The notes: generated by a model from the sequence alone, not told the origin. Shown: positions 10,394 through 29,782, numbered from the stretch's first letter. The stretch: 32,000 nt of DNA from Pseudomonas aeruginosa (GCF_001457615.1 NZ_LN831024.1:3030001-3062000), one strand, 5' to 3'. Program-made: numbers and translations.

Positions 10394-10632
10394 GGGCGGT
10401 GCAAATCACTCAAAAATCACAGAGGAAATGGTGCAGTTCGTACCTTGGCGCAAGGTTGGGGGAAACCTAGCATGAACTCACTGCCTGAACAAAAAATACA
10501 AGGAGGCGCCGTGACGCTCCATGTTCTTTTTTTGGGGTTTAGCGCAGTGGCAAGCGGGCTTGTTCGCCGGTGCCCGTTGCCCGGGCAGCGACCCGCCTGC
10601 GCCAACCGTTCCTTCAATCCGGAGTTCTTTCA

Positions 10633-11499: not shown

Positions 11500-11517
11500 A
11501 AGCCTTCCACGCTGGCC

Positions 11518-11542
11518 GGCCTGGCCCCGAAGGCGCCAGGCC
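11518..11542. terminator. GC-rich hairpin between convergent genes (possible bidirectional terminator)
   Basis: GGCCTGGC / GCCAGGCC 8-bp stem plus inner CC/GG pairs, between the PhyH1 stop (11499) and the BNR-protein stop (11584). No U-tract on either strand. Confidence 0.35.
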
Positions 11543-11583
11543 CAACCGAGTCCCCGGACAAGCAAAGAGGCCGGTGAACACTT

Positions 11584-12546
11584 TCATTCCTGGCGGGGCA
11601 TTACTCCGCGACGTGAAAACAGCAGCGGCGTGCCGTCGGCGTTGAACAGCGCCGCCGTCAGCGAAAGGCCGTCAGCCGACGGTGCTTCCTGGAAACTGTT
11701 TCCACCATCCCTGCTCCGTACCTTCAGTCCGTCAAGCCCGACCGCCAATACCCGAGCGCCAGCCACTGCTATGGATGTGACCGAGCCCTTGCCTTGCGTT
11801 GGCACTCTGAGAAAAGCCTTGCCATCGGCAGAGCCCTGCAACAGGGTGCCACGCTGACCACCCAGCAGCAGACGCCCATCGGCCAGCACCGCGCCAGACC
11901 ACAGGGTGCCCTCATAGCCGGTATCCAGGTAACGCCAGTTCTTCCCCTGGTCGTCGGAGCGCAGCACCTGCCCATGCTCGGCCGTGGCGTACAGGGTGCC
12001 GTGGTTGTCGGCAAACAGCCCCATCAGGTTGAGGTCGGCCCGCTTGGCTCCTGGAGGCGCTTGCAACGGCTGCTCCGTCCATGTCTTGCCGCCATCCTCG
12101 GTGGTCAGCACCAACGACCAGAGGCCTACCGCAACGCCCTGCCGGGCATCGAAAAAGTGCACGGCGAACAGCGGCCGGTCTTCTTCGCTCGACAGGCGCT
12201 GGACCTGCCAGGATTCCCCGCCGTCGGCGGTGGACAGGATCGCCCCCCAGTGACCCACCGCCCAGCCGTGCCTGGCATCCACGAAGGACACACCCGTCAA
12301 TGGCGTGGATAGTGGGACCGAGCGTGCCTGGCGCCACTGCCTGCCCTGGTCATCGGACAACAACACGACACCGTGGTCGCCCACGGCAACCACTCGCTCT
12401 CCGGCCCAGCCGGCGGCCAGCATGGTGGCCTGCGTGGCATTGCCCGCCTGCACGGCCGGCACGGCCTGCAACGGCGCGGCCTGGAGAGACATCAGCGGCA
12501 ATCCTGCTGCGAGCAAGGCCGCGGTGAATGAAACCCTGAACTTCAT
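11584..12546 (-). CDS. Secreted BNR/Ycf48-like beta-propeller protein (WD40/YVTN/BNR-like repeat protein)
   Basis: 320 aa with a signal peptide (MKFRVSFTAALLAAGLPLMSLQAAP). Repeated S.D.G..W units (TADGGESWQ, TEDGGKTWT, SDDQGKNWR, SRDGGNSFQ). Last gene of the DUF1329 operon. Confidence 0.8.
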   Translation of the reverse strand: MKFRVSFTAALLAAGLPLMSLQAAPLQAVPAVQAGNATQATMLAAGWAGERVVAVGDHGVVLLSDDQGRQWRQARSVPLSTPLTGVSFVDARHGWAVGHWGAILSTADGGESWQVQRLSSEEDRPLFAVHFFDARQGVAVGLWSLVLTTEDGGKTWTEQPLQAPPGAKRADLNLMGLFADNHGTLYATAEHGQVLRSDDQGKNWRYLDTGYEGTLWSGAVLADGRLLLGGQRGTLLQGSADGKAFLRVPTQGKGSVTSIAVAGARVLAVGLDGLKVRSRDGGNSFQEAPSADGLSLTAALFNADGTPLLFSRRGVMPRQE

Positions 12547-12556
12547 GCTTCTCTCC

Positions 12557-14971
12557 TCAGTGCACCAGCGCGCCGATCATGCGCACGGGACGTTTGCGCG
12601 GGAACGCCCGCTCCAGCCATACGGCGAAGGCCGGCAGCACGGTCATGGCCATGACCATGTTGACGACGAACATGAAGGCCAGCAGCTTGCCCATGTCGGC
12701 CTGGAACTTGAGCTCCGAGAAGGCCCAGGTGGCCACGCCAACGGCCAGGGTGATGGCGGTGAAAATGGTGGCGACGCCCACCTCGAGCAGCGCGTACTCC
12801 ACCGCCTTGGTGATCGTCTGGCCATGGGCCAGGTGCAGTTGCAGGCGGTTGTAGATGTAGAAGGCGTAATCGACGCCAATGCCCACTGCCAGCACCATCA
12901 CCGGCAAGGTGGCGATGGTCAGGCCGATCTGCAGCTCCTTCATGAACCAGTAGCCAATGAAGGTGCCGATGGTCAGCGGCAGGCAACACACCAGGACTGC
13001 CCGCAAGTCGCGATAGACCACGAACACCAGCAAGGCGATGGCGGCATAGACGTAAAGCAGCATGGGGGTTTCGCTCTTCTCCACCTCTTCGTTGATCGCT
13101 GCCAGGACGCCGGCGTTGCCGGAGGCGAGGCGGATCGAAATGCCTGACATCGGATACTCGCTGCGGAACGCCTTGGCGGCGTCCACCACTCGGTTGATGG
13201 TCGTGGCCTTGTGATCGGCCAGGTACAGGTGCACGGCCGACATGCTGCAATCGGTGCGCATCAGCCCGGGGGTTCGCGCAACCTCGGTGGCCAGCGCGGC
13301 GTAGTTCATCGGGTCGATGGGCACCGCCGCCATCTTCGGGTTGCCTTCGTTGTAGCCCTCGTTGAACTGACGCATGGTGGTGGAAAAGGACGCGACCGAG
13401 AGGACGCCGGGCACCCCCTGCATGGCCCACACGAAACGATCCTGGTACTGGCCCAGGGCGACATCCTCGCAGGCCACCTCGGAAGGAGCCTTGTCGACTT
13501 CGAACACCACGCTGAGCCAGTCCAGGCCAATGTCGTAGTTGCTGGCGATGGAGACCGCGTCGCGATTGAAGCGCGAGTCCTCGCGCAACTCCGGCGCACC
13601 CGCCTGCAGCGTGCCGACGACGCGGTCATGGCTTTGCCAGATCGCCGCCAGGAACACCGCCAAGGCCGCGCCGAGCACCCACTGCGCCTTGCGTGGCTCG
13701 GCGAGCCGGGCCAGGCCCCGCAGCCAACGGCTGCGACGCTGCCGGGAAACCTCCTGGGCGGCTGCGTACTTGTCGTCGACGCGCAGCAACGACGCCATCA
13801 ACGGCAACATCACCAGGTTGGTGACGATCTTGTAGGCCACGCCAAGCGAAGCCGTGATCGCCAGTTCCCGCACCATCGGGATCGGGATCAACAGCAGCGT
13901 CACGAAGGAAACCAGCGCGGTCACCAGCGCCAGCGTCCCGGGAACCAGCAACCCGGTGAAGCTCGAGCGTGCCGCCTCTTCGGCGCTCTTGCCGATGGCG
14001 ATCTCGCGCACGATGAAGTTGATTTGCTGCACGCCATGGGAAACCCCGATGGCGAACACCAGGAAGGGCACCAGCACTGCCAGCGGATCGAGCCCATAGC
14101 CCAACAGGCGCAGGCTGCCGAACTGCCAGACCAGCGAGGCCAGCGAACAGACCAATGCCAGCAAGGTGAAACGCAGCGAGTGGCAATACCAGTACACCGC
14201 CCCCGCCGTCAGCAGCAACGCCAGCAAACAGAACTCCAGCACGGCTGAAGCTCCGTCGGCGATGTCGCCGATCTGCTTGGCGAAACCGATGATCTGGATT
14301 TCGAAATCGCCGTCTTCGAAGCGCTGGCGGATCTCTTTCTCCAGCCGATGGTTGAAGGTTACGTAGTCCAGATGGGCGCCCTGGCTATCGTACTCGTTGA
14401 GTTCCACCGTGATCATCGCGCTGCTCTGGTCCCGGGAAACCAGCGTACCGATGAAGCCGCCCTGGGCAGTGGAATTGGCGATCTTCGCGATGATCCGGTC
14501 ATCCAGGTGCTCGGGAGAAACCGTTCCGGGTACCAGCGGATCAGCACGAAAACCTTCCTCGGTGATTTCGTTGACGAAGGCGTTGGGCGTCCACAGGGAG
14601 CGCACGCTGCTGCGCGATACTCCCGGGAGGAAGGTCACCGCCTGGGTGACGTCATACAGCCGCTTCAGGCCCGGGGCGCTCCAGATATCGCCCTCTCGGG
14701 CCTTGACCACGATGGTCAGTCGGTTCGCCCCCAGCAGGTCATTGCGGTAGGCCTCGAATGTCTCGATGTATTCGTGGCCTACCGGCAATTGCTTTTCGAA
14801 GCCGGCATCCATGCGCAGCTGTACGGCGAACCAGCCCATGATCAGCGTGAATACCGCCAGGCTCGCCAGCACCAGCCGGCGATGCCTGAACAACACACCT
14901 TCGACATATGACAACAGGCCACGTGTCGGGGCCTCAGGTAGCTTTACAGAACCGTTCACGGCAAGCCTCAC
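12557..14971 (-). CDS. RND-superfamily (MMPL/HpnN-like) inner-membrane transporter
   Basis: 804 aa with two 6-TM bundles separated by large periplasmic loops. The GTG start overlaps the DUF1302 stop (GTGA at 14968-14971). Confidence 0.85.
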   Translation of the reverse strand: MRLAVNGSVKLPEAPTRGLLSYVEGVLFRHRRLVLASLAVFTLIMGWFAVQLRMDAGFEKQLPVGHEYIETFEAYRNDLLGANRLTIVVKAREGDIWSAPGLKRLYDVTQAVTFLPGVSRSSVRSLWTPNAFVNEITEEGFRADPLVPGTVSPEHLDDRIIAKIANSTAQGGFIGTLVSRDQSSAMITVELNEYDSQGAHLDYVTFNHRLEKEIRQRFEDGDFEIQIIGFAKQIGDIADGASAVLEFCLLALLLTAGAVYWYCHSLRFTLLALVCSLASLVWQFGSLRLLGYGLDPLAVLVPFLVFAIGVSHGVQQINFIVREIAIGKSAEEAARSSFTGLLVPGTLALVTALVSFVTLLLIPIPMVRELAITASLGVAYKIVTNLVMLPLMASLLRVDDKYAAAQEVSRQRRSRWLRGLARLAEPRKAQWVLGAALAVFLAAIWQSHDRVVGTLQAGAPELREDSRFNRDAVSIASNYDIGLDWLSVVFEVDKAPSEVACEDVALGQYQDRFVWAMQGVPGVLSVASFSTTMRQFNEGYNEGNPKMAAVPIDPMNYAALATEVARTPGLMRTDCSMSAVHLYLADHKATTINRVVDAAKAFRSEYPMSGISIRLASGNAGVLAAINEEVEKSETPMLLYVYAAIALLVFVVYRDLRAVLVCCLPLTIGTFIGYWFMKELQIGLTIATLPVMVLAVGIGVDYAFYIYNRLQLHLAHGQTITKAVEYALLEVGVATIFTAITLAVGVATWAFSELKFQADMGKLLAFMFVVNMVMAMTVLPAFAVWLERAFPRKRPVRMIGALVH

Positions 14972-16614
14972 AAGGTGCGGGAGATCGCGATGCCGACATA
15001 ATCGCGGTCACGATAAAGCTGGTCGTAGGGCGTCTCACCGCCCATGAACTTCGCGTAGTTGAGGGAAATCTGCCAACTGGCCGGGTTCCGCACGAAGTTC
15101 AGGTACAGGTTCATGCTGCTCGCGTCCTCGGTGAAGGTTGCGCTGAGGTTCGGTGTCCGTCCTCCCAGCGACCGTGCATAGAAGACGCCCGGCGTGACCT
15201 GCCAGCCCGGCAACAAGGTGCCGTCATAGGTCAGGCTGAAGTCCAGGTTGATCCCTGAAGAGGTCTTGTCGCCACGGGACTTCGGCGCTCTGGCAGGATC
15301 CAGCTGCCAGGCATTGAGCCCCGCGGCGAGCGGTTCGCCATTGACCTCGTCATGCAGCCCCGGGTACTTGATGACCACCAGTTCGGTCAGCAAGCTGCCC
15401 GTGCTGGCCCCGCTGAAATCCAGAAGCGTCGGGGAATTGGACGGCGTGAAGCTGTACAGGCCTGTCAGGTGCCACTGGAATTTCTTCTCGTCCTTCCAGC
15501 ATTTGCCGCCGTTGCCGGTACACAGGTCGATGACCGGGTTGAGCATGACCGAGTCCTTCGGCCGGTACGACAGCTCCGTACCGACGGCCCAGTCACCGAT
15601 CGGCATGTTGGCACTGATGCCGTACATCATCCGGTCTTCCTGGTACTCCCAGGTCGGTGCCGCCGCGAAGGTGTTCGGGTCGAGAATGGCGACACGCAAC
15701 GATGGCAACTTGTCGTGATAACGCATCACGTAGAAGCCATAGGCGACGTCGCTGTCCTCCGGCTGCCAGCGCAGCGAAAGGCCCCACTGGCCGCTGTCGC
15801 GGGCGTCCTTTTCGGAGAATCCGTAGTCCCCCCTGCCCTCACCCAGCGCGTTGGTGGTGGACCAGTAGCTGCCCACCGGCGGCAATTCGCTCTTGTTCCA
15901 GCGGAATTGATAGTAGGCCTCGACGTTGACACCCGAGCCCAGGCCCGACGCGACACTGAGCATCGGCGCCGGCAGCACGGCCTCCTTGAGCTGCACGCCG
16001 GGGCGCGCCAAGGCCTGGTAATCATAGGCGTTGGTATTGTTGATGCCACCGGCCACGAACAGGCTTTCGCCCCAGTTGATCACCTGGTTGCCCAGGCGTG
16101 CGCGGACCCGCTGCCCGCCCACGTCGAAGCCTTTGCTCACCCACAGGTCCAGCAGGCGGGCCTTGAACGCGAGGTCGTCGCGGGCGTCGTCGCTCAGCCC
16201 GTTGCTGCCGACGCTCTCCGGGGTGTTGAACGACAGCGTGCCGGTGGTATCGGTGGCAGCGAAGTCGCGGATCCAGGTGCCGCGCGCCATGAAGGTGATG
16301 TCCTCGGGCATCTTCAGCAACAGCTCATGGGTGCCCTTGAGGTAGTTGGTGAACATGTCGCCGCGGTCGTAGTTCAGGTCGCCCTGGTCGGCCACGCCGG
16401 AGCTCTGCGCCAGGCAGCCGGAGGGCGCGTTGTGCCCGGTCGGTCCCTGGTTGATCAGGTTGCAGCCCCGTGACTCGGTACGCAGACCCATGCCTGCGGT
16501 GATCGTGGAGTCGAAGGAGCCATTGAGGGTTTCGGTTTCGAACGTGAATCCCATTGCCAGTGGGGTTGTGCACGCGATGACAAGGCCTGAGGCTTTCGTA
16601 ATTATTTTTTTCAT
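14968..16614 (-). CDS. DUF1302-family outer-membrane beta-barrel protein
   Basis: 548 aa with a signal peptide (MKKIITKASGLVIACTTPLAMG). N-terminal LNGSFDSTITAGMGLRT, an aromatic-rich alternating pattern and a C-terminal ...IAISRTL fit my memory of DUF1302 proteins. Confidence 0.75.
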   Translation of the reverse strand: MKKIITKASGLVIACTTPLAMGFTFETETLNGSFDSTITAGMGLRTESRGCNLINQGPTGHNAPSGCLAQSSGVADQGDLNYDRGDMFTNYLKGTHELLLKMPEDITFMARGTWIRDFAATDTTGTLSFNTPESVGSNGLSDDARDDLAFKARLLDLWVSKGFDVGGQRVRARLGNQVINWGESLFVAGGINNTNAYDYQALARPGVQLKEAVLPAPMLSVASGLGSGVNVEAYYQFRWNKSELPPVGSYWSTTNALGEGRGDYGFSEKDARDSGQWGLSLRWQPEDSDVAYGFYVMRYHDKLPSLRVAILDPNTFAAAPTWEYQEDRMMYGISANMPIGDWAVGTELSYRPKDSVMLNPVIDLCTGNGGKCWKDEKKFQWHLTGLYSFTPSNSPTLLDFSGASTGSLLTELVVIKYPGLHDEVNGEPLAAGLNAWQLDPARAPKSRGDKTSSGINLDFSLTYDGTLLPGWQVTPGVFYARSLGGRTPNLSATFTEDASSMNLYLNFVRNPASWQISLNYAKFMGGETPYDQLYRDRDYVGIAISRTL

Positions 16615-16637
16615 GCTGGCTCTCGATCTGGCGTCGG

Positions 16638-18062
16638 TTAGCGCTCGCTGATGGCTCGCAGATTGTCGGAGGTGAAGAAGTCACGCTTCAGGCGGGGGGA
16701 GCCGTTGTCTTCGGTGAGCCAGCGAATATCGTTCTTGCCCGCCCCGATCGAGGTCATGTCGAAGAGGTAGCGGCCATCCGCCAGGTTGTACTGGACCTGG
16801 GCCTGGACGTCGCAGGCGCCTGTCTCGTACACGGGAATCGAGAACCCTTCGCGCACTTTCCAGATCTGCCCTTGCTTGTCGTAGTCCACCGCCAGCAACG
16901 GGTTCCAGCTGTCCTCGTCGATGTAGAACATGCGCTTCGGCGCCTGATGGCGCATGCCTTGACGGACATTGGCCTCGACGACCCAGACCCGATGCAGCTC
17001 ATAGCGACGCGACTGCGGCGCGATCGAGTCGTTGCCGGCAAACGTCTCCACCTTGGCGCCAGTGTCGTAGGCACCGAAATCGTTGTAAGGCACCAGCAAC
17101 TCCTGCTTGCCGATCAGCTTCCAGTCGAAACGGTCCATGGTGCCGAAGAAGACGTTCGCCTCGTCGACGGTGTACTGGTTATCCAGGCCGATCTGTGGCG
17201 CATCGTAGGAGTACGACGGCATTCGCCGCACGCGGCGCTGGCCGGGGAAGTAGTAGAAGGTCGTGGCCTGTTCGCCGGCCACGGCAGTCTGTACCGCGGA
17301 CTGGCCGGCCAGAGCAGCCGGCTCGAGGTAGTTGAAGAAGGTCGCATTCTCCAGGCGGCCAACTGACGAGAAGAGCGCACTCCCCTTTTTCCCCCAGGGC
17401 GTGAAGAAGAAGGTATCTGTCGACTGACGTAACCATTCCCCCCCTTTGCGTGGAGAAATTCCGGAAATGGTCCGGGGAATTTCGACGCCAACGCCGCGGT
17501 AGCGCATCTTCATGTTCCACATCACCTCGGCACCGGTACTCGGCATGGGGAACGGGATGCCCGGAACGTGAGCCTCGTCCAGAGCGAGGCCGGCAGCATC
17601 GAGCTTGGCGAAACCAACGTTCTGCCGGGTGTTCTCGACCACGAAGTCCGGAGCGCTACAGGTCCGACGGGTCGGATACACATCCATGCGATAGCCGGGA
17701 ATCCTCTTGAACAGCTCGACCTGTCCGGGGGACAGCTTGCTCGAGTGTTGCGCGAGATTGTTCGCGTCGATGCTGTAGAGCGGCTTGTCGCCCTTGAACT
17801 TCCAGTGCTCTCCTCGCACCTGGCCGTAGCTCCATCCCTCGTCCTGCTGTCCAGGCTGCGTCCAGGCAGGAATATCCCCGCTTGCACTCGCTGCGATCTC
17901 CCCGCCCAAGGGGGTCAGTTTCGACCCCAGCGCCTCGGGGCCCTGGGGCGCAGCCTGGACCGAACAGAGCACGGTCGATACCGCGAGGGTCATGAACAAC
18001 TGCTGCTGGAAAACACGACGGGTGGGCGCTTCACCTTCCAGCCGTTCAGTTACATCTTTCAT
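16638..18062 (-). CDS. DUF1329-family periplasmic/outer-membrane lipoprotein-sorting-like (LolA-like) protein
   Basis: ORF 16638..18143, trimmed to MKDV (the Met at MTLAVSTVLCSVQA is also possible). LTPLGGEIAASASGDIPAWTQPG matches the conserved N-terminal signature I associate with DUF1329. Confidence 0.75.
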   Translation of the reverse strand: MKDVTERLEGEAPTRRVFQQQLFMTLAVSTVLCSVQAAPQGPEALGSKLTPLGGEIAASASGDIPAWTQPGQQDEGWSYGQVRGEHWKFKGDKPLYSIDANNLAQHSSKLSPGQVELFKRIPGYRMDVYPTRRTCSAPDFVVENTRQNVGFAKLDAAGLALDEAHVPGIPFPMPSTGAEVMWNMKMRYRGVGVEIPRTISGISPRKGGEWLRQSTDTFFFTPWGKKGSALFSSVGRLENATFFNYLEPAALAGQSAVQTAVAGEQATTFYYFPGQRRVRRMPSYSYDAPQIGLDNQYTVDEANVFFGTMDRFDWKLIGKQELLVPYNDFGAYDTGAKVETFAGNDSIAPQSRRYELHRVWVVEANVRQGMRHQAPKRMFYIDEDSWNPLLAVDYDKQGQIWKVREGFSIPVYETGACDVQAQVQYNLADGRYLFDMTSIGAGKNDIRWLTEDNGSPRLKRDFFTSDNLRAISER

Positions 18063-18136
18063 TGGATGGCTCCTCACACAGGGCATGGACCGGTTGCTCG
18101 ACCTCCCAAGGGGAAGAAGTCGGCTCCTGTCGATAA

Positions 18137-18179
18137 TGATCATTTGACCTGATCAATTGACCATGTCGGACGATCATGA
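18137..18179 (-). promoter_or_regulatory. Operator-like array, site 1 (upstream of the DUF1329 operon)
   Basis: TGATCATTTGACC TGATCAATTGACC ATGTCGGACGATCATGA. The first part is a tandem 13-bp repeat. The reverse complement aligns ungapped to 21813-21855 (32/43 identical) and to 23048-23073 (22/26). Confidence 0.6.
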
Positions 18180-18417
18180 GGCAAACCATATGCCAGTTCT
18201 CTTTCATGTTTTTTTAATTGTTATAAATCAGGCGGTTATGGAAAAAGTTCTGTTCCAGGCCCAGTGCCCTGTGCACCACCTTGGGAAGTAAAGAAACATG
18301 TGTTACCTGGAGATGCTTGGTAACAGGGCACAAGAGAGCTTGAGGGGAACTTTCGTAGATATCGGCTCGGGCATTTTTAATTGTCGTTTCGCCTCGGGTC
18401 AGAGGGAGCGATCGGAT

Positions 18418-18429
18418 ATGACCGGTCAT
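18418..18429. promoter_or_regulatory. Perfect 12-bp palindrome ATGACCGGTCAT in the long AT-rich region upstream of the DUF1329 operon
   Basis: Read directly from the sequence. It contains two GGTCA half-sites, the same half-site as the operator-like arrays. Function unknown. Confidence 0.25.
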
Positions 18430-18499
18430 GAATCGAGCAACTTTATCCGACAATGCACGCTCCGCGGCGGAGCGGGACTATAGCGGATGTAATGCCTGC

Positions 18500-18523
18500 A
18501 AAAAAAACCGCCCCGAAGGGCGG
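18500..18523 (-). terminator. Rho-independent terminator of the PhyH2 / FAD oxidoreductase / 7-TM operon
   Basis: The minus strand reads CCGCCCTTCGGGGCGG followed by TTTTTTTT. It lies 93 nt downstream of the 7-TM gene stop. A second small hairpin (GGCAGG/CCTGCC) sits at 18531-18549. Confidence 0.8.
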
Positions 18524-18615
18524 TAAAAGGCAGGGCCAGGGCCTGCCATGGAGTTACAGCAGAACAGTTCTGCCAGGTTATCGGTAAGAAAGAAAAACTT
18601 GTCGCGCCGTATTGT

Positions 18616-19278
18616 TTATCGCGGACGAGGAAACGCTTGGCCGTATACCTTGTTCGAACGCTCCAGCGCACCATAGGCATAGTACAACTGCACCATGGAA
18701 TAGGACCAAGCCAGGAAGGCCATGGTCATGAAGACCATCTTCGTGTCGTCTCCCGGAATCGGGAAGAAGTCATATCTGAGTGCTACTACCAGGCCCGCCA
18801 GCCCGCCAGCGATGGTGGCCAGAGTATGGAGGGCTTCGCCTGCACGGGCCAGTTGCAAGGTGAAGTAGCAAAGATACAAGGTATAGGCTGACCACATGAA
18901 TACATAGAAATAAGGGAGGAATCCCTCGATGATTCCAGACAGGAAATAGACGCCGGTAGCGGCAAAGCCAGCTACAAAAATGAGGATGTCCTTGGCGGGC
19001 GACGGTTTGTAATCGTGGGTAACTGCCATTAGCCCGAGCGTAGCGATAACTGGCACTCCCACCCCTCGCGAAAAGGCGTCGAGAAAGATCGCGATGTTGT
19101 AGTTGGCTTGCCAGCCGGTGGCTATGAATGTAGTGAAGTTCGATGCCGAGATACCTACGATCAAGAACTCCAGGCCAAGCAAATAGTTTTTCCGCCTGAT
19201 GAATGCAGCGCCATAAAACAATCCGGAAATCACCAGGAGAATACATGAGAGCAGAGCGAACAAGTCTCTCGGTTCCAC
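18616..19278 (-). CDS. Hypothetical integral membrane protein (about 7 TM), no family recognised
   Basis: 220 aa, GTG start with an AAGGGG SD. Very hydrophobic and aromatic-rich. Clearly AT-richer codon usage than its neighbours, judged by eye. It has its own strong terminator. Confidence 0.65.
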   Translation of the reverse strand: MEPRDLFALLSCILLVISGLFYGAAFIRRKNYLLGLEFLIVGISASNFTTFIATGWQANYNIAIFLDAFSRGVGVPVIATLGLMAVTHDYKPSPAKDILIFVAGFAATGVYFLSGIIEGFLPYFYVFMWSAYTLYLCYFTLQLARAGEALHTLATIAGGLAGLVVALRYDFFPIPGDDTKMVFMTMAFLAWSYSMVQLYYAYGALERSNKVYGQAFPRPR

Positions 19279-19373
19279 GTTAACTGCCCCTTCAGATAGA
19301 GTTGTATCGATGCCTTGTGTCTAATCGGTGCAAGGGAGTACGGGCATAACCCCATTAACTCCCCGCATCGTTA

Positions 19374-20741
19374 TCAGCCGTTCAAGGCTTTGTCTTTGCG
19401 CACTTTCTTGTCGGTCCATGCATCCAGTAGCCTGGCGGCCGCAAAGGCCGTCTTTATGGCGCACCATTGAAGTGGCTCGGGTAGCATGGATGGCGTCTTG
19501 TGTTCCAGCGCCGCTAGCAGCGGAGGCTCTCCACCGCCGATTCGCTCGGCGAAAAGCGCGCCCATGAGCGATTGAGTGGCAAGGCCATGCCCTGAACATC
19601 CCGCCGTATAGAAGATGTTCTGCCTGGCCCCTGTCACCCCGACCACGGGGAGGAAGTCGTAGGCCCCGCTGATATACCCGCTCCAGCAATGCCGAATGGC
19701 AAGGCCCTGCAAGGAAGGAAAACGCTCGCGCAACACTCTCGACAACGCGGCGTAGGCGGCGTGGTCCGGAACATTGGGTGTCTTCGAGCCGTAGGCATAA
19801 CCCAATTGCTTCACGGTCAGCAGCAGGGTGTCATGGGCCGTCAGGCGATGACTTTCCATGGTGTAGTGCGGCGTAATGAGGCCTTCACGCTCTTGCCAAC
19901 CCAGGGACGCCAGTTGCTCCGCCGATAGCGGCTGGGTTTCGATTGCCGAAACCCGGATCGGTGCAACCTTGTTGCGGAGCACTCCCAGCTGAGGCGTGTA
20001 GGCGTTGGTCGCCAGAACCATTACAGGGGCGGTGGCGATACCCTGGGCCGTATTGCAGGTAATCACCTGCCCTTCACAGTAGGAAAGCACCGGCGTGCGT
20101 TCGTACAATTTCACGCCAGCCTTGATTGCCGCACGACGCAGGCCGTTGACGTACTTTCCCGGATTCAAGGTGCCGCCACGCTGCTCGCTGCCAAACAGGA
20201 ATGCGGGCGGTATGCCTCGCGCGCGCATCTCGGCGCTATCCACGAAGCGCGTGACAGAGCCCAGCGCGTGGCCAAGCTCCATGTTCGCTCGCAGTCGCTT
20301 TTCCTGGCTGGGATGGACGGCGGCCCGGATGATTCCCGAGGGCGTGTAATCGCAATCGATGTCCAGCGCAGCCAAACGCTCTTCCACATAGGTGACGGCC
20401 TCGTCATAGAAACCGACGAACTTACGTGCCTGCTCAAGCCCCACTCGCTTGACGAAAACCTCGCATTCTATGCCCATGCTGCCGAGCAGATAGCCGGCAT
20501 TGCGCCCGCTGGCCCCGAAGCCTGCGAACTGCTGTTCCAGAACGATGACGTTCGCTCCACGCGCCCTTAGTTCCAGCGCCGTTGACAGGCCGGCGAACCC
20601 GGCGCCGACCACGACTACGTCTGCGTGCTCGTGGCCTTTCAGCGCCGGCTGCAGGTCGTCTGGCTGCTCCACCCATCCGCCAAGGCTGCGGAATCTCATG
20701 GGTTCGGCATTGTTGCGTGCCGCTCCGTTGAAGGCATTCAT
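19374..20741 (-). CDS. FAD-dependent (DAO-family) amine oxidoreductase, PuuB (gamma-glutamylputrescine oxidase)-like
   Basis: ORF 19374..21011, trimmed to MNAFNG (GGGAG SD 8 nt upstream). VVVVGAGFAGLSTALEL dinucleotide fold, GFGASGRNAGYL and a C-terminal GCSGHGL, as in PuuB-type enzymes. Confidence 0.8.
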   Translation of the reverse strand: MNAFNGAARNNAEPMRFRSLGGWVEQPDDLQPALKGHEHADVVVVGAGFAGLSTALELRARGANVIVLEQQFAGFGASGRNAGYLLGSMGIECEVFVKRVGLEQARKFVGFYDEAVTYVEERLAALDIDCDYTPSGIIRAAVHPSQEKRLRANMELGHALGSVTRFVDSAEMRARGIPPAFLFGSEQRGGTLNPGKYVNGLRRAAIKAGVKLYERTPVLSYCEGQVITCNTAQGIATAPVMVLATNAYTPQLGVLRNKVAPIRVSAIETQPLSAEQLASLGWQEREGLITPHYTMESHRLTAHDTLLLTVKQLGYAYGSKTPNVPDHAAYAALSRVLRERFPSLQGLAIRHCWSGYISGAYDFLPVVGVTGARQNIFYTAGCSGHGLATQSLMGALFAERIGGGEPPLLAALEHKTPSMLPEPLQWCAIKTAFAAARLLDAWTDKKVRKDKALNG

Positions 20742-20802
20742 TCTCATCACTCCCGGGTTGCCGGACGTTGTTCCTCTCATGGGCCGATCCATGGCAGTGC
20801 CG

Positions 20803-21690
20803 CTAGAACCCCTTCCCCGCCTCGGAAAAGGAGGGCATGCCCAACAGCTCTTGCGGGTCACGCATCTGACCATCGATCTCCACCCAACCCAGTAGCGTGG
20901 AACTGGCACTCCATCCCAGCAGACGCTGCATTTGCGAGGGGAGCTGCCGAACGCGCTCGACGGGTATGGAAAGGAAGTGGTTTTCTTCCAGGCGCAGGAA
21001 GGCCAGGTCATAGGCCATGGTCAGGCCTGTGCGAGGAGCGTCGGATCTGTTGGCGCCACCGCCGTGATATACCGATCCCAGCCAGAGAAGCGCAGTGCCT
21101 GCCTTCATTTCTGCGCCGATGGTTTCTTCCTGGGTGGGCATCCGTTCGTCATCCCATTGATGACTGCCAGGAATGACCCGCGTCGCGCCGTTCTCTTCGG
21201 TGAAGTCGGTAATCGCCAGCATGAGCTGCAAGCGAGCCTCGCGACCATACTGCGGATGCCGCCAGAGCGAAGTGGCATCGTCGCGATGCAGGGGTTGAAG
21301 ACCTTGTCCAGGCCCGATCTGTATCGCCTGGGTCATGCTCAGTTGGATATCGGGCGTGATCTCGACCCGATCGTTCCCTACCCAGACATGGGTGGGAGTC
21401 TGCAATACCTGCTTTGCCGTCTCGAGGAACAGGGGGGTCAGTGCCACTTCCACGGCGGAGTCGCTTTTCGCCAGGATCCGCGCGGTACGTCGAGTCTGGG
21501 TGCCGGCGAAGTAAGGGTCCATGCCGCAGGGGGTAACGCCCAGATAGCTGTCCAGGTCCTCGGTAAGAGACTTCAAGGTTTCTTCCGAGACGAAGTTGCA
21601 AATAGCGACAGCGCCATCACGCCTGATGATTTCCACTACCTGCTCGATCGGGGTGTCGCAGCTGACTGTCGTCAATCTTCGCGTACTCAT
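20803..21690 (-). CDS. Phytanoyl-CoA dioxygenase (PhyH) family Fe(II)/2-oxoglutarate dioxygenase, paralog 2
   Basis: 295 aa. LHRDDA (HxD), VYHGGGAN (distal His) and FTEENGATRVIPGSH. This block is nearly identical to the one in paralog 1. Confidence 0.85.
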   Translation of the reverse strand: MSTRRLTTVSCDTPIEQVVEIIRRDGAVAICNFVSEETLKSLTEDLDSYLGVTPCGMDPYFAGTQTRRTARILAKSDSAVEVALTPLFLETAKQVLQTPTHVWVGNDRVEITPDIQLSMTQAIQIGPGQGLQPLHRDDATSLWRHPQYGREARLQLMLAITDFTEENGATRVIPGSHQWDDERMPTQEETIGAEMKAGTALLWLGSVYHGGGANRSDAPRTGLTMAYDLAFLRLEENHFLSIPVERVRQLPSQMQRLLGWSASSTLLGWVEIDGQMRDPQELLGMPSFSEAGKGF

Positions 21691-21812: not shown

Positions 21813-21855
21813 GTTTGATCATACGACATGATCATGTGATCAAGTCAAACGATTA
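21813..21855 (+). promoter_or_regulatory. Operator-like array, site 2 (PhyH2 / tetR divergent region)
   Basis: GTTTGATCATACGACATGATCATGTGATCAAGTCAAACGATTA, with three TGATCA cores at 21816, 21829 and 21837. Ungapped match to the reverse complement of site 1. Confidence 0.6.
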
Positions 21856-22138: not shown

Positions 22139-22720
22139 ATGGCTCGAGTGGGCGCCGAAGTGCGCAGGCAAGACTTTATTGAGGCCGCCGTGAAGGTGAT
22201 CGCGGAATATGGTGTGGCGAATGCCACTACGCGTCGCATCGCGGCCGCGGCGAATTCTCCATTGGCCTCCCTGCACTATGTCTTCCACACCAAGGACGAA
22301 TTGTTCGACGCGGTCTATGAGTCCCTGATAGACAAGCCACAGCAGTCCTTGCTGCATGTTACGGCGGGAGCCACGGCGGCAGACTCGGTAGCAGAGATAT
22401 TGCGCCAGTTGGTCGGGTGGTTCACCACGCATCCGGAACTGGCGACTACGCAGTTCGAGCTGTTTTTCTGGAATCTGCGTAACAACCCCGCTATGGCGAG
22501 CAAGATCTACACCGATTCCGTCGAAGCGACGAAGCAGGCCATTGAACAGGTCGCTGGCTCGGTGCTGGACCAGGAAGCGCTGGCCACTGTCAGTCGCTTG
22601 CTCATCAACCTGTTCGATGGCTTGCTTCTCGCCTGGTCCGCCCATGGTGACCAGGAGCGGCTGAATGCCGAGACCGAAGCCGCCTGCCAGGCTGTGAAGC
22701 TGTTGGTGGCCAGCTTCTGA
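22139..22720 (+). CDS. TetR/AcrR-family transcriptional regulator
   Basis: 193 aa. N-terminal HTH RQDFIEAAVKVIAEYGVANATTRRIAAAANSPLASLHYVFHTKDELF. GAAGGAGAAG SD upstream. Confidence 0.9.
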   Translation: MARVGAEVRRQDFIEAAVKVIAEYGVANATTRRIAAAANSPLASLHYVFHTKDELFDAVYESLIDKPQQSLLHVTAGATAADSVAEILRQLVGWFTTHPELATTQFELFFWNLRNNPAMASKIYTDSVEATKQAIEQVAGSVLDQEALATVSRLLINLFDGLLLAWSAHGDQERLNAETEAACQAVKLLVASF

Positions 22721-22777: not shown

Positions 22778-23047
22778 GCTCTTCGGGCCTCTTGCCAGTT
22801 CAGGTGCGGCGCCTCTTCTAGTTCTCCTCTCCCCGCCTCCGCTTCCAGCGGAATCCTGGGCGGCTATCTCGCCGGTCCTTCCCCCTCATAGTCCTGCAAG
22901 TTGACTGTGCGCTTCTCGTCCATGCAACAGGCCTTCCGCCATGGCCTGGCGGGAACTGGCTGCGGCACCTAGGTGCAAATAAACCCAAACCGATGGAAAC
23001 CTGGTGCATTTCGCACCTTGTACCAGCAACTCGCTCGCGCCTATTCT

Positions 23048-23080
23048 GGTCAAACGATCAAGTCAAAAGATCAAGTCTCT
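23048..23080 (+). promoter_or_regulatory. Operator-like array, site 3 (directly upstream of the BVMO gene)
   Basis: GGTCAAA CGATCA AGTCAAA AGATCA AGTCTCT, with 13-bp periodicity. It ends 23 nt before the BVMO ATG. A possible sigma70-like TTGTAC-N17-TATTCT lies just upstream at 23019-23047 (speculative). Confidence 0.6.
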
Positions 23081-23103: not shown

Positions 23104-24630
23104 ATGTCCTCTCACACTGCTCTTCCAATTGAGCCGCTCGATGTTCTGATCATAGGAGCCGGTGTGTCTGGCATCGGCGCTGCGGCTTACCTTCGACGTC
23201 ACCAGCCGCACAAGGTGTTTGCGATTCTCGAGTCCCGGGAGCGAATGGGCGGCACCTGGGACCTGTTCCGCTATCCCGGCATACGCTCCGACTCGGACCT
23301 GTACACCTTCGGCTTCGACTTCAAGCCTTGGACCAAGGCGAAATCTCTGGCGGATGCCGCCGACATTCTCGAATACCTGCGAGAAGCCGTCGCTGAATAC
23401 CAGTTGGACCCCTTCATCCAGTACCGGCAGAAAGTGGTCTCGGCGAATTGGCAGAGCGACAAAGGGCTGTGGGCAGTATGCGTCGAGGACGGCCACACGG
23501 CAGAAACCCGCACCATCGAATGCCGCTGGCTGTTCAGCGCAGGCGGCTACTACCGTTATGACCAAGGCTTCAGCCCACGCTTCGAGGGCGCGGAGCAGTT
23601 CAAGGGGCAAATCATCCACCCGCAACACTGGCCCGAGCGCTTGGACTATCGAGGCAAGCATGTGGTGGTCATCGGCAGCGGCGCAACGGCGGTGACCCTG
23701 ATTCCCGCCATGGCCGACGAGGTCGCCAGCATCACCATGTTGCAGCGGACGCCCTCCTATATCGTCAACCAGCCCGCCAACGATTCCGTTGCCGCTTTTC
23801 TTCGCAAGATTCTGCCGGCGCAAACCGCCTACTCACTGACGCGCTACAAGAATGCCAAGATCACCCTGGTCTTCTGGCGATTCTGCCAGCGCTTCCCCGG
23901 GCTCGCCCGCAAGCTGCTCATATGGCTGACCCGTAGAGAATTACCGAAAGGCTATCCGGTCGACGTTCATTTCAACCCGCCCTACAAGCCCTGGGACCAA
24001 CGCTTGTGCTCGGTTCCCGAAGGCGATCTTTTCAAGGCCATCAGTGCAGGTAAAGCCTCGGTCGTTACCGACCATATCGAGCGCTTTACCGAGTCCGGTG
24101 TCTTGCTCAAGTCCGGCACGGAACTGAAGGCCGATATCATCATCACGGCCACCGGTCTGAACGTGCAGTTGTTCGGCGGTATCGCCCTGCACAAGGATGG
24201 CGAGCCGGTAGTGTTGAGCCAGACGCTGGCGTACAAGGGCACGATGCTTTCCGGCGTACCCAATTTTGCCTTTGCGGTGGGCTATACCAACTCATCCTGG
24301 ACGCTGAAAGTATGCCTGCTGTGCGACCACTTCTGTCGCTTGCTGGGCTTCATGGACAGCCAGGGCCATAACGTCTGCGAGCCGAAGGCGCCGGATGGTG
24401 TCGAAACCCGTCCCCTGCTGGATTTCGGGGCCGGATATGTCCAGCGGGCATTGGATGGCATGCCGCGCCAGGGGCCTCGCGAGCCCTGGGTGATGTCGAT
24501 GGATTACTTCCGTGACATCAAGCTTTTGCGCCGAGGGAAGGTCGCCGACGAATGCCTCCGGTTCAGCACGGTGCCTGACGCCTACCTGCACAGAAGCGTG
24601 GCGCTTCAGACTCAGGGCGGCGGGCGATGA
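23104..24630 (+). CDS. Type I Baeyer-Villiger (flavin-containing) monooxygenase, EthA-like
   Basis: ORF 22993..24630, trimmed to MSSHTAL (AGGAGG SD). GAGVSG FAD fold, BVMO fingerprint [12 protein letters not shown] (FxGxxxHxxxWP) and a second Rossmann GSGATA. Confidence 0.9.
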
Positions 24631-25502
24631 CTGCGGATCGGTTCTGCGAGCTACCGGGCAAGCGTAGCCTCTGCTATCGCAGCCACGGTCCGGAAACCGC
24701 GCCTGCGGTCATCCTCATCGTCGGCCTGGGGCTGCAATTGATCTACTGGCCTGAAGCGCTCATCGCCGGCCTGGTCGAGCGGGGCCTGCGCGTGATCACG
24801 CTGGACAACCGTGACTCGGGCAGGTCTTTCTTCACCGAGGTTACCCCGCCCTCGACCCTGCAACAGTTCTTCCGCAAACCGACTGCGGGGTATGACCTGG
24901 GCGACATGGCCGACGATGTGATCGGCCTCATGGATGGCCTGCGCCTGGGGGCGGCGCACGTCGTAGGGATGTCGATGGGCGGCATGATCGCCCAGACACT
25001 TGCCGCTCGTTATCCGCAGCGAGTCATGAGCCTGGCGTCCATCTTCTCGACGACAGGATCGCTGCGAGTAGGCCAGCCAGCGTTCAAGACCATCTTGCAG
25101 CTTCTCCGGCGTCCTCCCCGGAACCAGCGGGAGAGCGTTCGCGACTATGTGGAGATCATGCGTTCCGTCGGTACGACGCTGGAATGGGACGAGCAGGCCC
25201 ATCGCGACTACGCCATGCAAGCCTGGGAGCGAGGCGGCGGGGAAGCGAGCAACCTCGGGATGGCGAGGCAGATCGGCGCCATCATCAACTCGGGCGACCG
25301 AACGCAGGAACTCCAGCGAATTCGCTGCAACACACTGGTCATCCATGCTGAGAAAGACCTCATGGTCGCCACCAGCGGAGGCTTCGCCACGGCGGCGGCC
25401 ATTCCCAGGGCACGCTTGGTGCTGTTGCCGGGAATGGGGCATGACTTCCCCGCCTGCCTGACAGGAACGCTGCTTTCCCTGCTCGCAGGCCAAATGCATT
25501 AG
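24627..25502 (+). CDS. Alpha/beta-fold hydrolase (putative esterase partner of the BVMO)
   Basis: 291 aa. Nucleophile elbow GMSMGG and C-terminal GMGHDFP. The start overlaps the BVMO stop (ATGA at 24627-24630). Confidence 0.85.
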
Positions 25503-25518
25503 TACGGAACATCCCTTC

Positions 25519-25547
25519 AGGGGCGGGTGGGTGCCGCCCCTCTTTTT
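25519..25547 (+). terminator. Rho-independent terminator of the BVMO-esterase operon
   Basis: AGGGGCGG / CCGCCCCT 8-bp stem with a 7-nt loop, followed by CTTTTTA. It lies 17 nt after the hydrolase stop. Confidence 0.8.
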
Positions 25548-25732
25548 ACACCTCGGGACTTGCATGGGGCTTTTCGAAGTTCGTGCTTATCCAGGCCCAC
25601 ATAAGACAAAAAGGTTCCCGGTTGATTCTCGACCGCAGAGCCATGCATCACACGCCGGAGCCGTTGGTTCGCCCTGCGCGTGAATTCCTCCACTGCCGTT
25701 CAACAACGACAAAAATCGAGCAAGAGGTACGT

Positions 25733-26890
25733 ATGGAATTCAAGTTCTTACTCCCCGCCAAAGTCGTGATGGGACCCGACCTGCGCGAGCGCACCGGCGA
25801 ATACCTGCGGGAACTCGGCATGGCGCATGTGCTGATCGTGACGGACGCCGGGGTAAAGGCCGCAGGCCTGTTGAATGGCGTGTATGCCAGCCTGAATGAG
25901 TGGGAGATCGCGTTCGACGAGATATCGGAGGTCAAGGCAAACCCTCGCAGCGAAGACATCAACCAGGCGGCGCAGCTGTATCGCGGCAAAGGTATCCACG
26001 GCCTGCTGGCCATCGGCGGCGGCAGCGCGATGGACGCGGCCAAGGCGATCAGCCTGCTGCTGACCCACGAGGGTCGGATCGAAGACTACGAGGGCTCTTT
26101 CACCCTCAGGCACGCCATCCCGCCTATCGTCGCCATCCCGACCACCGCCGGAACCGGCAGCGAAGTGACCTGCTTCTCGGTGATCACCGATACCGCCCGG
26201 CATTTCAAGATGAGCGTCCAGGATTACCGGGTGGGCCCCGTTCTGGCATTGCTCGACTCCCGCATTCTCGACACGCTGCCTGCATCGATTGCCGCCGCAA
26301 CCGGCATGGATGCCCTCACCCACGCCATCGAAGCCTACACCTGCCGTGTGTCGAATCCGATCAGCGACGGGCTGGCGCTGCATGCCATCCGCCTGATCAG
26401 CCAATACCTCAGGCCCGCCGTACTGGAGCCGGGCAACCTGCATGCACGCGAGCAAATGCTGGTGGCCAGCCTGATCGCCGGCATGGCCTTCGGTAACGCG
26501 GACGTCGGCAGCGTGCACTGCATTTCCGAAGCCATCGGTGGCATGTACGACACGCCACACGGCGTGGGCAACGCGATCTTCCTGCCCTTCGTGTTCGGCC
26601 ATAACCGCGACGCCGACATCACCCGCCACGCGCAGGTCGCCTACGCATTGGGTATCGACCCCAACCTCTCGCCGGCCGAGGCCGCCGAGGCCGCCGTTGG
26701 CTACCTGTTCCAGATGAGCAAGGACCTGGGCATCCCCCGCTTCGCCGAGGTGAAAGGCGTGCGCGAGGAAGACTTCCTGAGCATCGCCGAAAAGTCGAAG
26801 AAGAATTTCTCCGACGGCAGCAATGCCAAGCAAATGACGGTGGAAACCTACCGTGAAATCGTCGCCGCCGCTTACCACTACGTAGCGTGA
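25733..26890 (+). CDS. Iron-containing (group III) alcohol dehydrogenase
   Basis: ORF 25583..26890, trimmed to MEFKFLLP (AAGAGG SD). GGGSAMDAAK motif and metal-binding His residues (DALTHAIEAY, CISEAIGGMYDTPHGVGNA). Confidence 0.9.
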   Translation: MEFKFLLPAKVVMGPDLRERTGEYLRELGMAHVLIVTDAGVKAAGLLNGVYASLNEWEIAFDEISEVKANPRSEDINQAAQLYRGKGIHGLLAIGGGSAMDAAKAISLLLTHEGRIEDYEGSFTLRHAIPPIVAIPTTAGTGSEVTCFSVITDTARHFKMSVQDYRVGPVLALLDSRILDTLPASIAAATGMDALTHAIEAYTCRVSNPISDGLALHAIRLISQYLRPAVLEPGNLHAREQMLVASLIAGMAFGNADVGSVHCISEAIGGMYDTPHGVGNAIFLPFVFGHNRDADITRHAQVAYALGIDPNLSPAEAAEAAVGYLFQMSKDLGIPRFAEVKGVREEDFLSIAEKSKKNFSDGSNAKQMTVETYREIVAAAYHYVA

Positions 26891-26902
26891 AGGAGGCCCG
26901 TC

Positions 26903-28234: not shown

Positions 28235-28312
28235 CGACCACCCTTCTATCGAACGCTCTGACAACAACCACAAGGCCGGCTTCGAGCCTGCCCTTCAATG
28301 GCGAGAATCGAT

Positions 28313-29737: not shown

Positions 29738-29782
29738 CCGCCCACACCCCGGACTACCCAGATCATTTTTCAAGAGGTTTGC

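Follow-up and report, generated by a model that had tools for sequence, protein, structure and literature searches.

A four-gene module at positions 11584-18062 (minus strand) was analyzed in a 32,000-nt stretch of Pseudomonas aeruginosa DNA (NZ_LN831024.1:3030001-3062000), the whole of which is called the window below. The module specifies an envelope system with four components that is of the AmeABCD/PP2810-PP2813 type; the namesakes of this type are found in Castellaniella defragrans and in Pseudomonas putida KT2440. This kind of system is already known. New are the identification of PP2810-PP2813 with the family defined by DUF1329, DUF1302, HAE3, and BNR proteins, a TetR-type operator that is common to three promoters, one of them a CbrB/sigma-54 promoter, and a neighborhood signal of enzymes acting on amines, aldehydes, and ketones.

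The longest forms of the four successive open reading frames (ORFs) extend over 16638-18143, 14968-16614, 12557-14971, and 11584-12546. In the order of transcription, they encode a DUF1329 protein that is predicted to be a LolA-like periplasmic carrier (16638..18062, 474 aa), a DUF1302 protein with a signal peptide that is predicted to form an outer-membrane beta-barrel (14968..16614, 548 aa), an inner-membrane permease of the HAE3/MMPL type that belongs to the superfamily called resistance-nodulation-division (RND) (12557..14971, 804 aa), and a Ycf48-like BNR beta-propeller with a signal peptide (11584..12546, 320 aa). The start of the first gene was placed at the MKDV codons at 18062, where conservation begins in an alignment of more than 60 homologues; this MKDV start is kept in 40+ loci. 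A longer form starting at 18143 was rejected because its ATG falls within the operator described below and conservation begins only at MKDV. The DUF1329 and DUF1302 genes are separated by a gap of 23 nt, the DUF1302 stop codon and the RND start codon overlap (GTGA), and 10 nt separate the RND from the BNR gene, with GGAGAG as the ribosome-binding site; an alternative GTG start for the RND gene is found 12 nt further downstream. Both the ORFs and the junctions are thus as stated in an earlier note on this DNA, which had described a tightly packed minus-strand operon.

An intrinsic terminator, a GC-rich hairpin followed by T8 (18507..18524, minus strand), ends the upstream unit of genes for a PhyH dioxygenase, a DAO-type oxidoreductase, and a 220-aa protein, and therefore the four-gene module is a separate transcription unit. 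Another GC-rich hairpin, GGCCTGGC...GCCAGGCC, which has no T-run, lies at 11515-11545, where the BNR gene and a further PhyH gene converge, and may be a bidirectional terminator. A scan of 11400-18700 against Rfam yielded no match at the gathering score, and the weak matches overlapped the terminator hairpin. The region around the DUF1302 start (16590-16614, minus strand; ATGAAAAAAATAATTAC) includes an A-rich stretch of the AAnAAnAA type, a sort of sequence to which Hfq/Crc binds in the catabolite repression of Pseudomonas; such a candidate Hfq/Crc stretch would fit the link to CbrB that is described below.

Profile searches with Pfam and NCBIfam placed all four proteins in the families that the earlier note had proposed. 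The DUF1329 protein matches PF07044 with an E-value of 7e-123. An AlphaFold2 model calculated from a 56-sequence alignment (pLDDT 89, pTM 0.88) was compared with solved structures using Foldseek, and its residues ~190-470 match proteins of the LolA superfamily. The top match is LolA3 of P. gingivalis (9tp6; E 7e-16, TM-score 0.82 on the target), and further matches are the DUF1329 structure 4z48 (E 1e-13), 3bk5, 3buu, RseB, and LolA; the extra N-terminal domain (~40-190) lies outside of these matches. The model thus supports the proposed LolA-like nature of the protein at the level of the fold, although the Pfam LolA_like profile scores below threshold (26 bits vs a cut-off of 30). Identity with a LolA/LolB sorting protein was rejected on account of this sub-threshold score, the closest solved structures being proteins of the DUF1329/LolA3 type. 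A sequence search of the Protein Data Bank (PDB) yielded no solved relative for either the DUF1329 or the DUF1302 protein.

The N-terminus of the DUF1329 protein carries a signal peptide that ends in ...SVQA and is followed by AP. Its TRRVFQQ sequence resembles a twin-arginine motif, but the two arginines are conserved only among the closest relatives; export via the Tat pathway was rejected in favor of a signal peptide of the Sec type, which is more likely. A lipoprotein nature was rejected as well, since no lipobox precedes the cysteine of the DUF1329 protein and the BNR signal peptide has no cysteine; altogether, the DUF1329, DUF1302, and BNR proteins have signal peptides without lipoboxes. 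The DUF1302 protein matches PF06980 (E 8e-135) over profile positions 4-540 of 541, and its assignment as a barrel is based on a family member that was modeled as an 18-stranded barrel (PMC13499233). In Delftia, DUF1302 and DUF1329 proteins were found in outer-membrane vesicles/nanopods induced by phenanthrene, in outer-membrane and vesicle fractions (PMC3110197).

The permease matches the Pfam families MMPL (E 3.8e-23, 82.4 bits vs a cut-off of 20.5), Patched SSD, and, partially, ACR_tran (36.6 bits). Its best NCBIfam match is TIGR00921 (HAE3; E 3.5e-50), with a score of 170.8 bits that is below the subfamily cut-off of 351.9, and in the PDB only distant relatives, MmpL5 and AcrB, were found by sequence. 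Hydropathy is consistent with a 1+5+1+5 layout of transmembrane (TM) helices and two periplasmic domains, and the second TM bundle contains a GVDY motif. The two halves are asymmetric at the putative proton-relay helix, which reads AIGVSHGVQQ in the first bundle (residues 305-315) vs GIGVDYAFYI in the second (695-705); the latter aligns with the conserved DY motif in the first TM bundle of MmpL5. Neither the operon nor the window ORFs scanned with Pfam contain a gene for a membrane fusion protein (MFP; HlyD) or an outer-membrane factor (OMF; OEP domain). The lack of such partners had been noted before, and on this account a classical tripartite pump of the AcrAB-TolC/Mex type was rejected.

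The BNR protein starts with MKFRVSFTAALLAAGLPLMSLQA, a signal peptide, followed by AP. It matches the Pfam family PSII_BNR/Ycf48 (E 3.8e-20, 72.8 bits vs a cut-off of 27) and Ycf48-like proteins in the PDB (E 1.5e-20). The score against NF010237 is only 73.4 bits vs 326 and the host is a Pseudomonas, so the protein is a homologue, not a functional equivalent, of the photosystem II assembly factor Ycf48/HCF136. For P. putida homologues, co-folding predicts a strong contact between the BNR and RND proteins (PMC10866462), and the propeller is the probable periplasmic partner of the RND protein.

The earlier note had further stated that the arrangement recurs in Pseudomonas and other Proteobacteria. 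A scan of one genome per species yielded 80 loci with RND proteins that are 71-95% identical, in Pseudomonas and many Betaproteobacteria. In all 72 loci that are not cut by the end of a contig, the order is DUF1329-DUF1302-RND-BNR on one strand; the other eight loci are truncated by contig ends. An identical RND protein is encoded in the Pseudomonas assembly GCA_023917525.1, and the genomes of P. parasichuanensis, P. soli, and P. japonica contain two such modules each. A paralogue with 38% identity on pPAMH19 has the alternative order DUF1302-DUF1329-Ycf48-MMPL. Of 635 P. aeruginosa strains, 629 retain the gene set (PMC13499233), and the cluster to which a 100% identical DUF1329 protein belongs has 581 member sequences, some of which are labeled P. 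aeruginosa.

The whole island also occurs on 0.5-Mb megaplasmids of P. aeruginosa, with an RND protein that is 95% identical. In one example, p12939-PER (NZ_MF344569; locus L083), it extends from the aminotransferases to a MexCD-OprJ-like pump. In another locus, L001 (18959-22338), a Tn3-family transposase adjoins the island. Because of the location on megaplasmids and the adjacent transposase, the island is regarded as mobile. The window appears to depart from L001 beyond a 180-aa ORF (8575-9117), at the point where L001 has the transposase, which suggests a boundary of the island.

The upstream region of the operon contains a promoter of the sigma-54 type with -24/-12 elements, TGGCATATGGTTTGC, at 18181..18195 on the minus strand (-133..-119, centered at -126 from the ATG). 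It is the only match of this kind within the window, and is located directly upstream of an operator array. The element is kept in 42 of the 43 Pseudomonas loci, including loci without a TetR gene, and in none of the 33 betaproteobacterial loci. A sigma-70-like promoter was looked for in 18063-18615, and none was found. Further upstream follow a site that resembles the consensus for integration host factor (IHF), TAACCGCCTGAT (18227..18238, minus strand; -176..-165), and two subsites of the CbrB type on the same strand, R1 (GTAACA; 18301-18306, -244..-239) and F1 (TGTTAC; 18320-18325, -263..-258), so that the putative IHF site lies between the activator sites and the sigma-54 promoter. In an alignment of 20 upstream regions, GTAACA is the best-conserved block and is strictly kept, with TGTT(T/C)C and TGGTGC nearby, and an IHF-like block, TAAnnnnnTGA, is conserved as well. 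NtrC was considered as the activator and rejected, since there is only a single TGGTGCA half-site and the literature on CbrB fits better. No Sigma54_activat domain was found in any of the window ORFs scanned, and the lack of a local activator gene is accounted for by the fact that CbrB is a global activator.

The same architecture has been described experimentally for KT2440. Barroso et al. (2018; PMC6296734) report an operon, PP2810-PP2813, that encodes two proteins described as hypothetical, one transporter, and one BNR protein, and that is called a putative efflux pump. Its promoter has a sigma-N element centered at -127, an IHF site at -165 to -189, and a CbrB footprint from -210 to -270 in which R1 (GTAACA) is the critical subsite. 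Expression depends on cbrB and ihf and was increased 20-fold on the poorest carbon source; the CbrB regulon also includes OprD, ArgT, and permeases (PMC6296734). Four primers published for PP2810 match the promoter of the closest related loci (L012-L014, L017) at the expected positions with 0-3 mismatches, and one of them contains the operator sequence. Because both the promoter geometry and the primer positions match, the window operon is, as judged by sequence, the direct counterpart of PP2810-PP2813, with the same four genes in the same order and the same arrangement of sigma-54, IHF, and CbrB sites. In the passages of PMC6296734 that were searched, the term DUF1329 has no occurrence, and neither DUF1302, a TetR operator array, nor a link to units with Baeyer-Villiger monooxygenase (BVMO) or PhyH genes is mentioned.

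The promoter type differs between lineages. The sigma-54/CbrB promoter is present in Pseudomonas (L018, L028, L034, and L041 were among the loci noted in this comparison) and absent in the betaproteobacterial loci L046-L082, in which a regulator of the AraC type is adjacent (16 loci). The same module is thus rewired to different regulators across lineages.

The second regulatory feature is the operator array, which the earlier note had claimed to be common to the module and a BVMO operon. With up to three mismatches, GATCANGTCAAANGATCA has six matches in the window vs 0.11 expected, and these are confined to three clusters. The first (18137..18176, minus strand) consists of an inverted repeat, TGATCnnnnGAC-N3-GTCAAnTGATCA, and one more direct half-site, and lies directly downstream of the -12 element; its position is kept in related loci at -91/-113 from the DUF1329 start codon. 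The second cluster (21816..21855) is located between the unit of PhyH, DAO, and 220-aa protein genes and a tetR gene, and the third (23043..23073, plus strand) is located 30-60 nt upstream of the BVMO start codon (~23104). The regulator gene (22139..22720, plus strand) encodes a TetR-family protein of 193 aa, whose TetR_N domain was detected on the gene's identical copy in L001; in many further loci of Pseudomonas, a TetR gene is divergent from the module. Across relatives, the operator and an adjacent TetR gene are both present in 33 loci and both absent in six, with four discordant cases (Fisher p = 1e-4). Because of this co-occurrence, the TetR protein is likely to repress all three units via the three arrays.

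In addition, the BVMO promoter shares a second motif with the promoter of the PhyH gene downstream of the module. This motif, TGGTGCAnTTCGnACCTTG, is an inverted repeat (GGTGC-N6-GCACC) that has two matches vs 0.10 expected, at 10429-10447 upstream of the first PhyH gene and at 23002-23020 upstream of the BVMO gene. It is kept at both places only in loci that have a regulator of the PucR/Rv1453 type, and therefore it is probably the site of that regulator; the BVMO promoter would then have two regulators.

Since a conserved sigma-54 promoter with sites for CbrB and IHF immediately precedes the operator, the sequence implies a two-input AND gate, in which carbon limitation would act via CbrB, IHF, and sigma-54, and a hydrophobic ligand would release TetR. 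Data for KT2440 fit such a ligand: the BVMO gene PP_2805 and PP_2807 are among the few genes that are strongly induced by both 1-octanol and prodigiosin production (PMC10832525). By gene numbering, PP_2807 is located two genes upstream of PP2809/PP2810 and is probably the equivalent of the gene that comes first in the second unit with an operator.

The genes around the module are catabolic in character. On its downstream side, a first PhyH dioxygenase gene (10633-11499, plus strand) is convergent with the end of the module, and beyond it lies a gene for a PucR/Rv1453-family regulator (9140-10393, minus strand). On the other side, the co-regulated unit at 18616..21690 (minus strand) comprises a second PhyH gene (20803-21690), a gene for a DAO-type FAD amine oxidoreductase (19374-20741), and one for a 220-aa protein with multiple TM helices (18616-19278). 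Hence the module is flanked by PhyH genes on both sides, as had been claimed, with the second one parted from it by two genes. The third operator precedes the first of seven same-strand genes (23104..31036, plus strand), which include those for the BVMO, an alpha/beta hydrolase, an Fe-alcohol dehydrogenase, an APC permease, an aldehyde dehydrogenase (ALDH) resembling aminobutyraldehyde dehydrogenase, and a class-III aminotransferase of the DABA type; the gene order is the same in the annotation of p12939-PER. At 28298-31036, after the APC permease gene, the ALDH scores 812 bits against PRK13473 (cut-off 615) and a diaminobutyrate-2-oxoglutarate-type transaminase scores 567 bits (cut-off 438), together a pair of the polyamine or diamine type. 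The 220-aa protein has no Pfam or NCBIfam family. With the DAO oxidoreductase, it accompanies the module, differently arranged, in other Pseudomonas loci, where a run of genes for DAO, flavin amine oxidase, cytochrome c, the 220-aa protein, and ALDH is found just downstream of the module; the protein may be the membrane partner of an electron-transfer chain for amine oxidation.

All ORFs adjacent to the module in the 80 loci were clustered, and the frequent clusters were annotated. The most common families are ALDH (32 loci) and DAO oxidoreductase (27 loci), followed by flavin amine oxidase and a protein resembling the heavy chain of methylamine dehydrogenase (13 loci each), class-III aminotransferase (9 loci), and APC permease (8 loci). 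Acyl-CoA synthetase and dehydrogenase, FadB-like, GMC oxidoreductase, and cytochrome c genes are also recurrent. Within 10 kb, an amine-oxidizing or transaminating enzyme is encoded in 40 of the 64 loci with full flanks, and either such an enzyme or an ALDH in 46 of the 64 (raw counts without a background). In a plasmid locus of Azoarcus, the module and ALDH are joined by an APC permease and alanine dehydrogenase, and in many relatives a MexCD-OprJ-like tripartite pump with its own TetR adjoins the island. Taken together, these neighborhoods suggest that the lineage with this gene order accompanies the catabolism of lipophilic compounds, both from amine to aldehyde to acid and of ketones. The earlier note had considered the genomic context to be informative, and the TetR and CbrB logic and the association with amine, aldehyde, and ketone enzymes extend this view.

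Two regions of the window lie apart from these units. At 6762-7856 (plus strand), a protein with a metallo-beta-lactamase fold (Lactamase_B_2, E 2e-46) is encoded, overlapping a 349-aa ORF without a family on the opposite strand (7401-8450, minus strand), and at 176-3147 (minus strand) unrelated genes of the exopolysaccharide type are found, for mannose-1-phosphate guanylyltransferase/isomerase and undecaprenyl-phosphate sugar transferase.

What the module transports has to be read from this context and from work on its relatives. The earlier note had stated that the arrangement has no experimentally established substrate or mechanism. This holds insofar as none is biochemically defined, and a paper from 2026 calls DUF1302 functionally dark (PMC13499233); the literature searches yielded no defined substrate for the module and nothing that ties it to alkylamine degradation. 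However, the implied absence of experiments was overstated, as results on AmeABCD, co-fitness, growth on Tween 20 and butyl stearate, AlphaFold complexes, and the PP2810 promoter have been published. The AlphaFold co-folding predicted contacts within a DUF1302-DUF1329 complex and a DUF1329-BNR-RND complex (PMC10866462), with an ipTM of 0.84 in PMC13499233.

In the mechanism that we propose, the RND protein, powered by the proton motive force (PMF), would pass a hydrophobic or amphiphilic small molecule to or from the LolA-like DUF1329 carrier. The carrier would shuttle between the RND-propeller complex and the DUF1302 barrel, so that the cargo would cross the periplasm and the lipopolysaccharide barrier without a duct of the MFP/TolC type; the barrel, docked by DUF1329, would stand in for the duct of classical pumps. 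Transcription would require activation of the sigma-54 promoter by CbrB and IHF under carbon limitation, as was shown in KT2440 and is deduced here from the conserved sites, and, as a second condition, release of the adjacent TetR from the operator array that starts at the region of the transcription start. The same operator would also control the PhyH/amine oxidoreductase unit and the unit of BVMO, esterase, and alcohol dehydrogenase. A poorly soluble lipophilic growth substrate, possibly from the class of medium- or long-chain amines, alcohols, or ketones, would be captured and channeled to the co-induced oxidative enzymes, in a traffic analogous to that from NPC2 to NPC1 or to the retrograde lipid route of the Mla type, and not to a drug pump.

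A PMF-driven acquisition of lipophilic substrates across the outer membrane, periplasm, and inner membrane for co-regulated oxidative enzymes is the net role that we favor, tentatively and with a little less than even confidence, the direction being the least certain step. It is favored because carbon limitation licenses the operon together with uptake genes of the CbrB regulon, because the operon is co-repressed with catabolic enzymes, and because an amine-oxidizing or transaminating enzyme is so often encoded within 10 kb. It is also favored because growth on Tween 20 and on butyl stearate, which is not toxic, requires paralogues in P. putida, the split KT2440 set PP_0765/0766 and PP_2018/2019, in a cell-autonomous manner in pooled assays (bioRxiv 10.1101/2020.07.04.188060), and because deletion of a DUF1329 gene of Delftia impaired growth on phenanthrene, as reported in PMC13101534. 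Finally, a conventional tripartite pump already adjoins the island in many relatives.

The main alternative has the opposite direction, namely that the module is an efflux or tolerance valve: the RND protein would extract from the inner membrane a toxic lipophilic substrate or a toxic intermediate (for example an aldehyde or amine) and pass it to DUF1329 for release via DUF1302, which would keep the loading of the membrane sub-lethal while the co-induced enzymes degrade the compound. We regard this as a real possibility, if a doubtful one. As a rule, bacterial RND proteins transport outward, and to our knowledge every one of known direction does so (AcrB, HpnN, MmpL3/5); the module has a TetR-type repressor and operator, and RND pumps under TetR control are typically efflux pumps. 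Cationic amphiphilic amines are strongly membrane-toxic, and an importer in the inner membrane is normally not required for hydrophobic substrates. Island genes are induced by 1-octanol and prodigiosin, which are membrane-active compounds, and, both being membrane stressors, this induction suits a stress response as well. The only direct genetics on an intact cassette was likewise read as efflux: Puentes-Cala and Harder (PMC6394551) deleted ameABCD, a 'tetrapartite' HAE3 RND system in a monoterpene island, and observed less growth on hydrocarbon monoterpenes, partial rescue by acetate at up to 5 mM limonene, and a higher accumulation of Nile Red. However, the increase in Nile Red was described as slight for C. 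defragrans, and it appeared only when the uncoupler CCCP was present. A detoxification pump would also not be expected to need carbon limitation via CbrB and sigma-54, a tripartite pump with its own TetR is already at hand next to the island in many relatives, and butyl stearate, the ester that calls for the P. putida paralogues, has practically no toxicity. Further points that weigh against acquisition are that the association with amine enzymes lacks a background control and does not extend to about one third of the loci, that binding of CbrB, IHF, and TetR at this locus is predicted from the sites, and that a search of the literature yielded no phenotype for PP2810-PP2813 itself.

The most novel form of the acquisition hypothesis is an RND protein that works inward, with a route from barrel to LolA-like carrier to RND and propeller, which would use the PMF for the uptake of poorly soluble nutrients in parallel to NPC2/NPC1; the lineage studied here would be specialized for lipophilic amines, alcohols, and ketones, and would have the two-input promoter of CbrB and TetR. 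We consider this version rather unlikely as it stands.

Price et al. (bioRxiv 10.1101/072470), who observed co-fitness of the four families in Shewanella, Kangiella, and Pseudomonas, proposed the export of a cell wall component, a notion prompted by pleiotropic mutant phenotypes in Shewanella and P. stutzeri. Applied to this module, an endogenous component of envelope lipids or vesicles would be exported from the inner to the outer membrane in a manner similar to HpnN, and the remodeled surface or the vesicles would aid contact with hydrophobic substrates. The phenanthrene-induced vesicles/nanopods of Delftia that contain DUF1302 and DUF1329 proteins (PMC3110197) are in line with this idea, as is the increased vesiculation of KT2440 upon overexpression of the neighboring BVMO gene (PMC10832525); moreover, the HAE3 relatives HpnN and BstA, although distant here, export membrane lipids. 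However, no lipid-biosynthesis genes were found in the window or among the frequent neighbor families, which are catabolic. The presence of several paralogous modules in one genome, each in a different catabolic cluster, also points to substrate specificity instead of housekeeping, and a substrate-responsive TetR combined with a carbon-limitation promoter would be unusual for envelope biogenesis. Export of an endogenous lipid is therefore improbable in our view.

The phenotype of the P. putida paralogues on fatty esters gave rise to yet another proposal, that DUF1302 and DUF1329 are themselves esterases and not transport components (bioRxiv 10.1101/2020.07.04.188060). This can hardly be correct. 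The DUF1329 model has the fold of a LolA-like carrier without any hydrolase match, a DUF1302 family member was modeled as an 18-stranded membrane barrel (PMC13499233), and a later paper on the same RB-TnSeq (random barcode transposon-site sequencing) data re-read both proteins as transport components (PMC10866462). In addition, the island already has an alpha/beta hydrolase.

The combination of DUF1302, DUF1329, an HAE3 RND protein, and a Ycf48-like protein is among the most widespread uncharacterized envelope systems of Proteobacteria and occurs in islands for the catabolism of monoterpenes, phenanthrene, p-cresol, steroids, and benzene. DUF1329 genes were listed in phenanthrene, p-cresol, and steroid clusters (bioRxiv 10.1101/072470), and a study from 2026 draws attention to this gene set in an organism that degrades benzene anaerobically (PMC13101534). 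The locus offers a test bed in a model strain, with a two-input promoter, a candidate repressor and its operator, 1-octanol and prodigiosin as candidate inducers, and a narrowed substrate class. If inward transport were true, this would be the first bacterial RND importer, with a bearing on bioremediation, the engineering of uptake in P. putida, and envelope biology.

Among known systems, the lipid exporters HpnN and MmpL3 are likewise small RND proteins with two periplasmic domains and without MFP/OMF partners that remove lipids from the inner membrane driven by the PMF; HpnN belongs to HAE3, whereas the mycobacterial MmpL proteins form a separate RND family. However, these systems have no DUF1302, DUF1329, or BNR partners, and neither hopanoid nor mycolate genes are present here. 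Identity with HpnN was rejected by the scores (TIGR03480, 50.2 bits vs 751.85; NF052374, 20.1 vs 1100), as was identity with BstA, for which the equivalog score is far below the cut-off. The Lol, Mla, and NPC2-NPC1 systems share with the proposed mechanism a soluble carrier with a hydrophobic cavity that ferries lipid, in Lol and Mla between an energized machine of the inner membrane and an acceptor in the outer membrane, and NPC1 is a protein of the RND superfamily that takes its cargo from a soluble carrier and moves it inward. In contrast to the module, Lol and Mla are driven by ABC proteins and not by RND proteins, NPC2 has no homology to DUF1329, and DUF1329 has its extra N-terminal domain.

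Three literatures meet at this locus, those on AmeABCD, on the co-fitness cluster, and on the CbrB target PP2810-PP2813. In the co-fitness cluster Sama_1588-1591 and the split P. putida set, the same four families act together genetically. These sets are partly split in the genome and associated with LuxR, and their phenotypes are pleiotropic or specific for fatty esters, whereas the window copy is contiguous, has TetR, CbrB, and sigma-54 sites, and lies among amine and ketone enzymes. PP2810-PP2813 comes closest; the text of PMC6296734 that was consulted deals with CbrB regulation only, and no substrate or mutant phenotype is reported there, and the window copy is from a different strain than KT2440, with the same island occurring also on P. 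aeruginosa megaplasmids. AmeABCD has an identical composition (DUF1302, a LolA-like DUF1329 protein, a COG4447/Ycf48-like protein, and an HAE3 RND protein) and also resides in a catabolic island for hydrophobic compounds. The likeness was judged by composition; its context is the anaerobic monoterpene metabolism of a betaproteobacterium, and its gene order, which the pPAMH19 paralogue shares, is DUF1302-DUF1329-BNR-RND instead of DUF1329-DUF1302-RND-BNR. Thus, the window module is a member of the AmeABCD type by composition, and the different order, which is no functional criterion, marks a distinct sub-lineage of that type and does not exclude the module from it.

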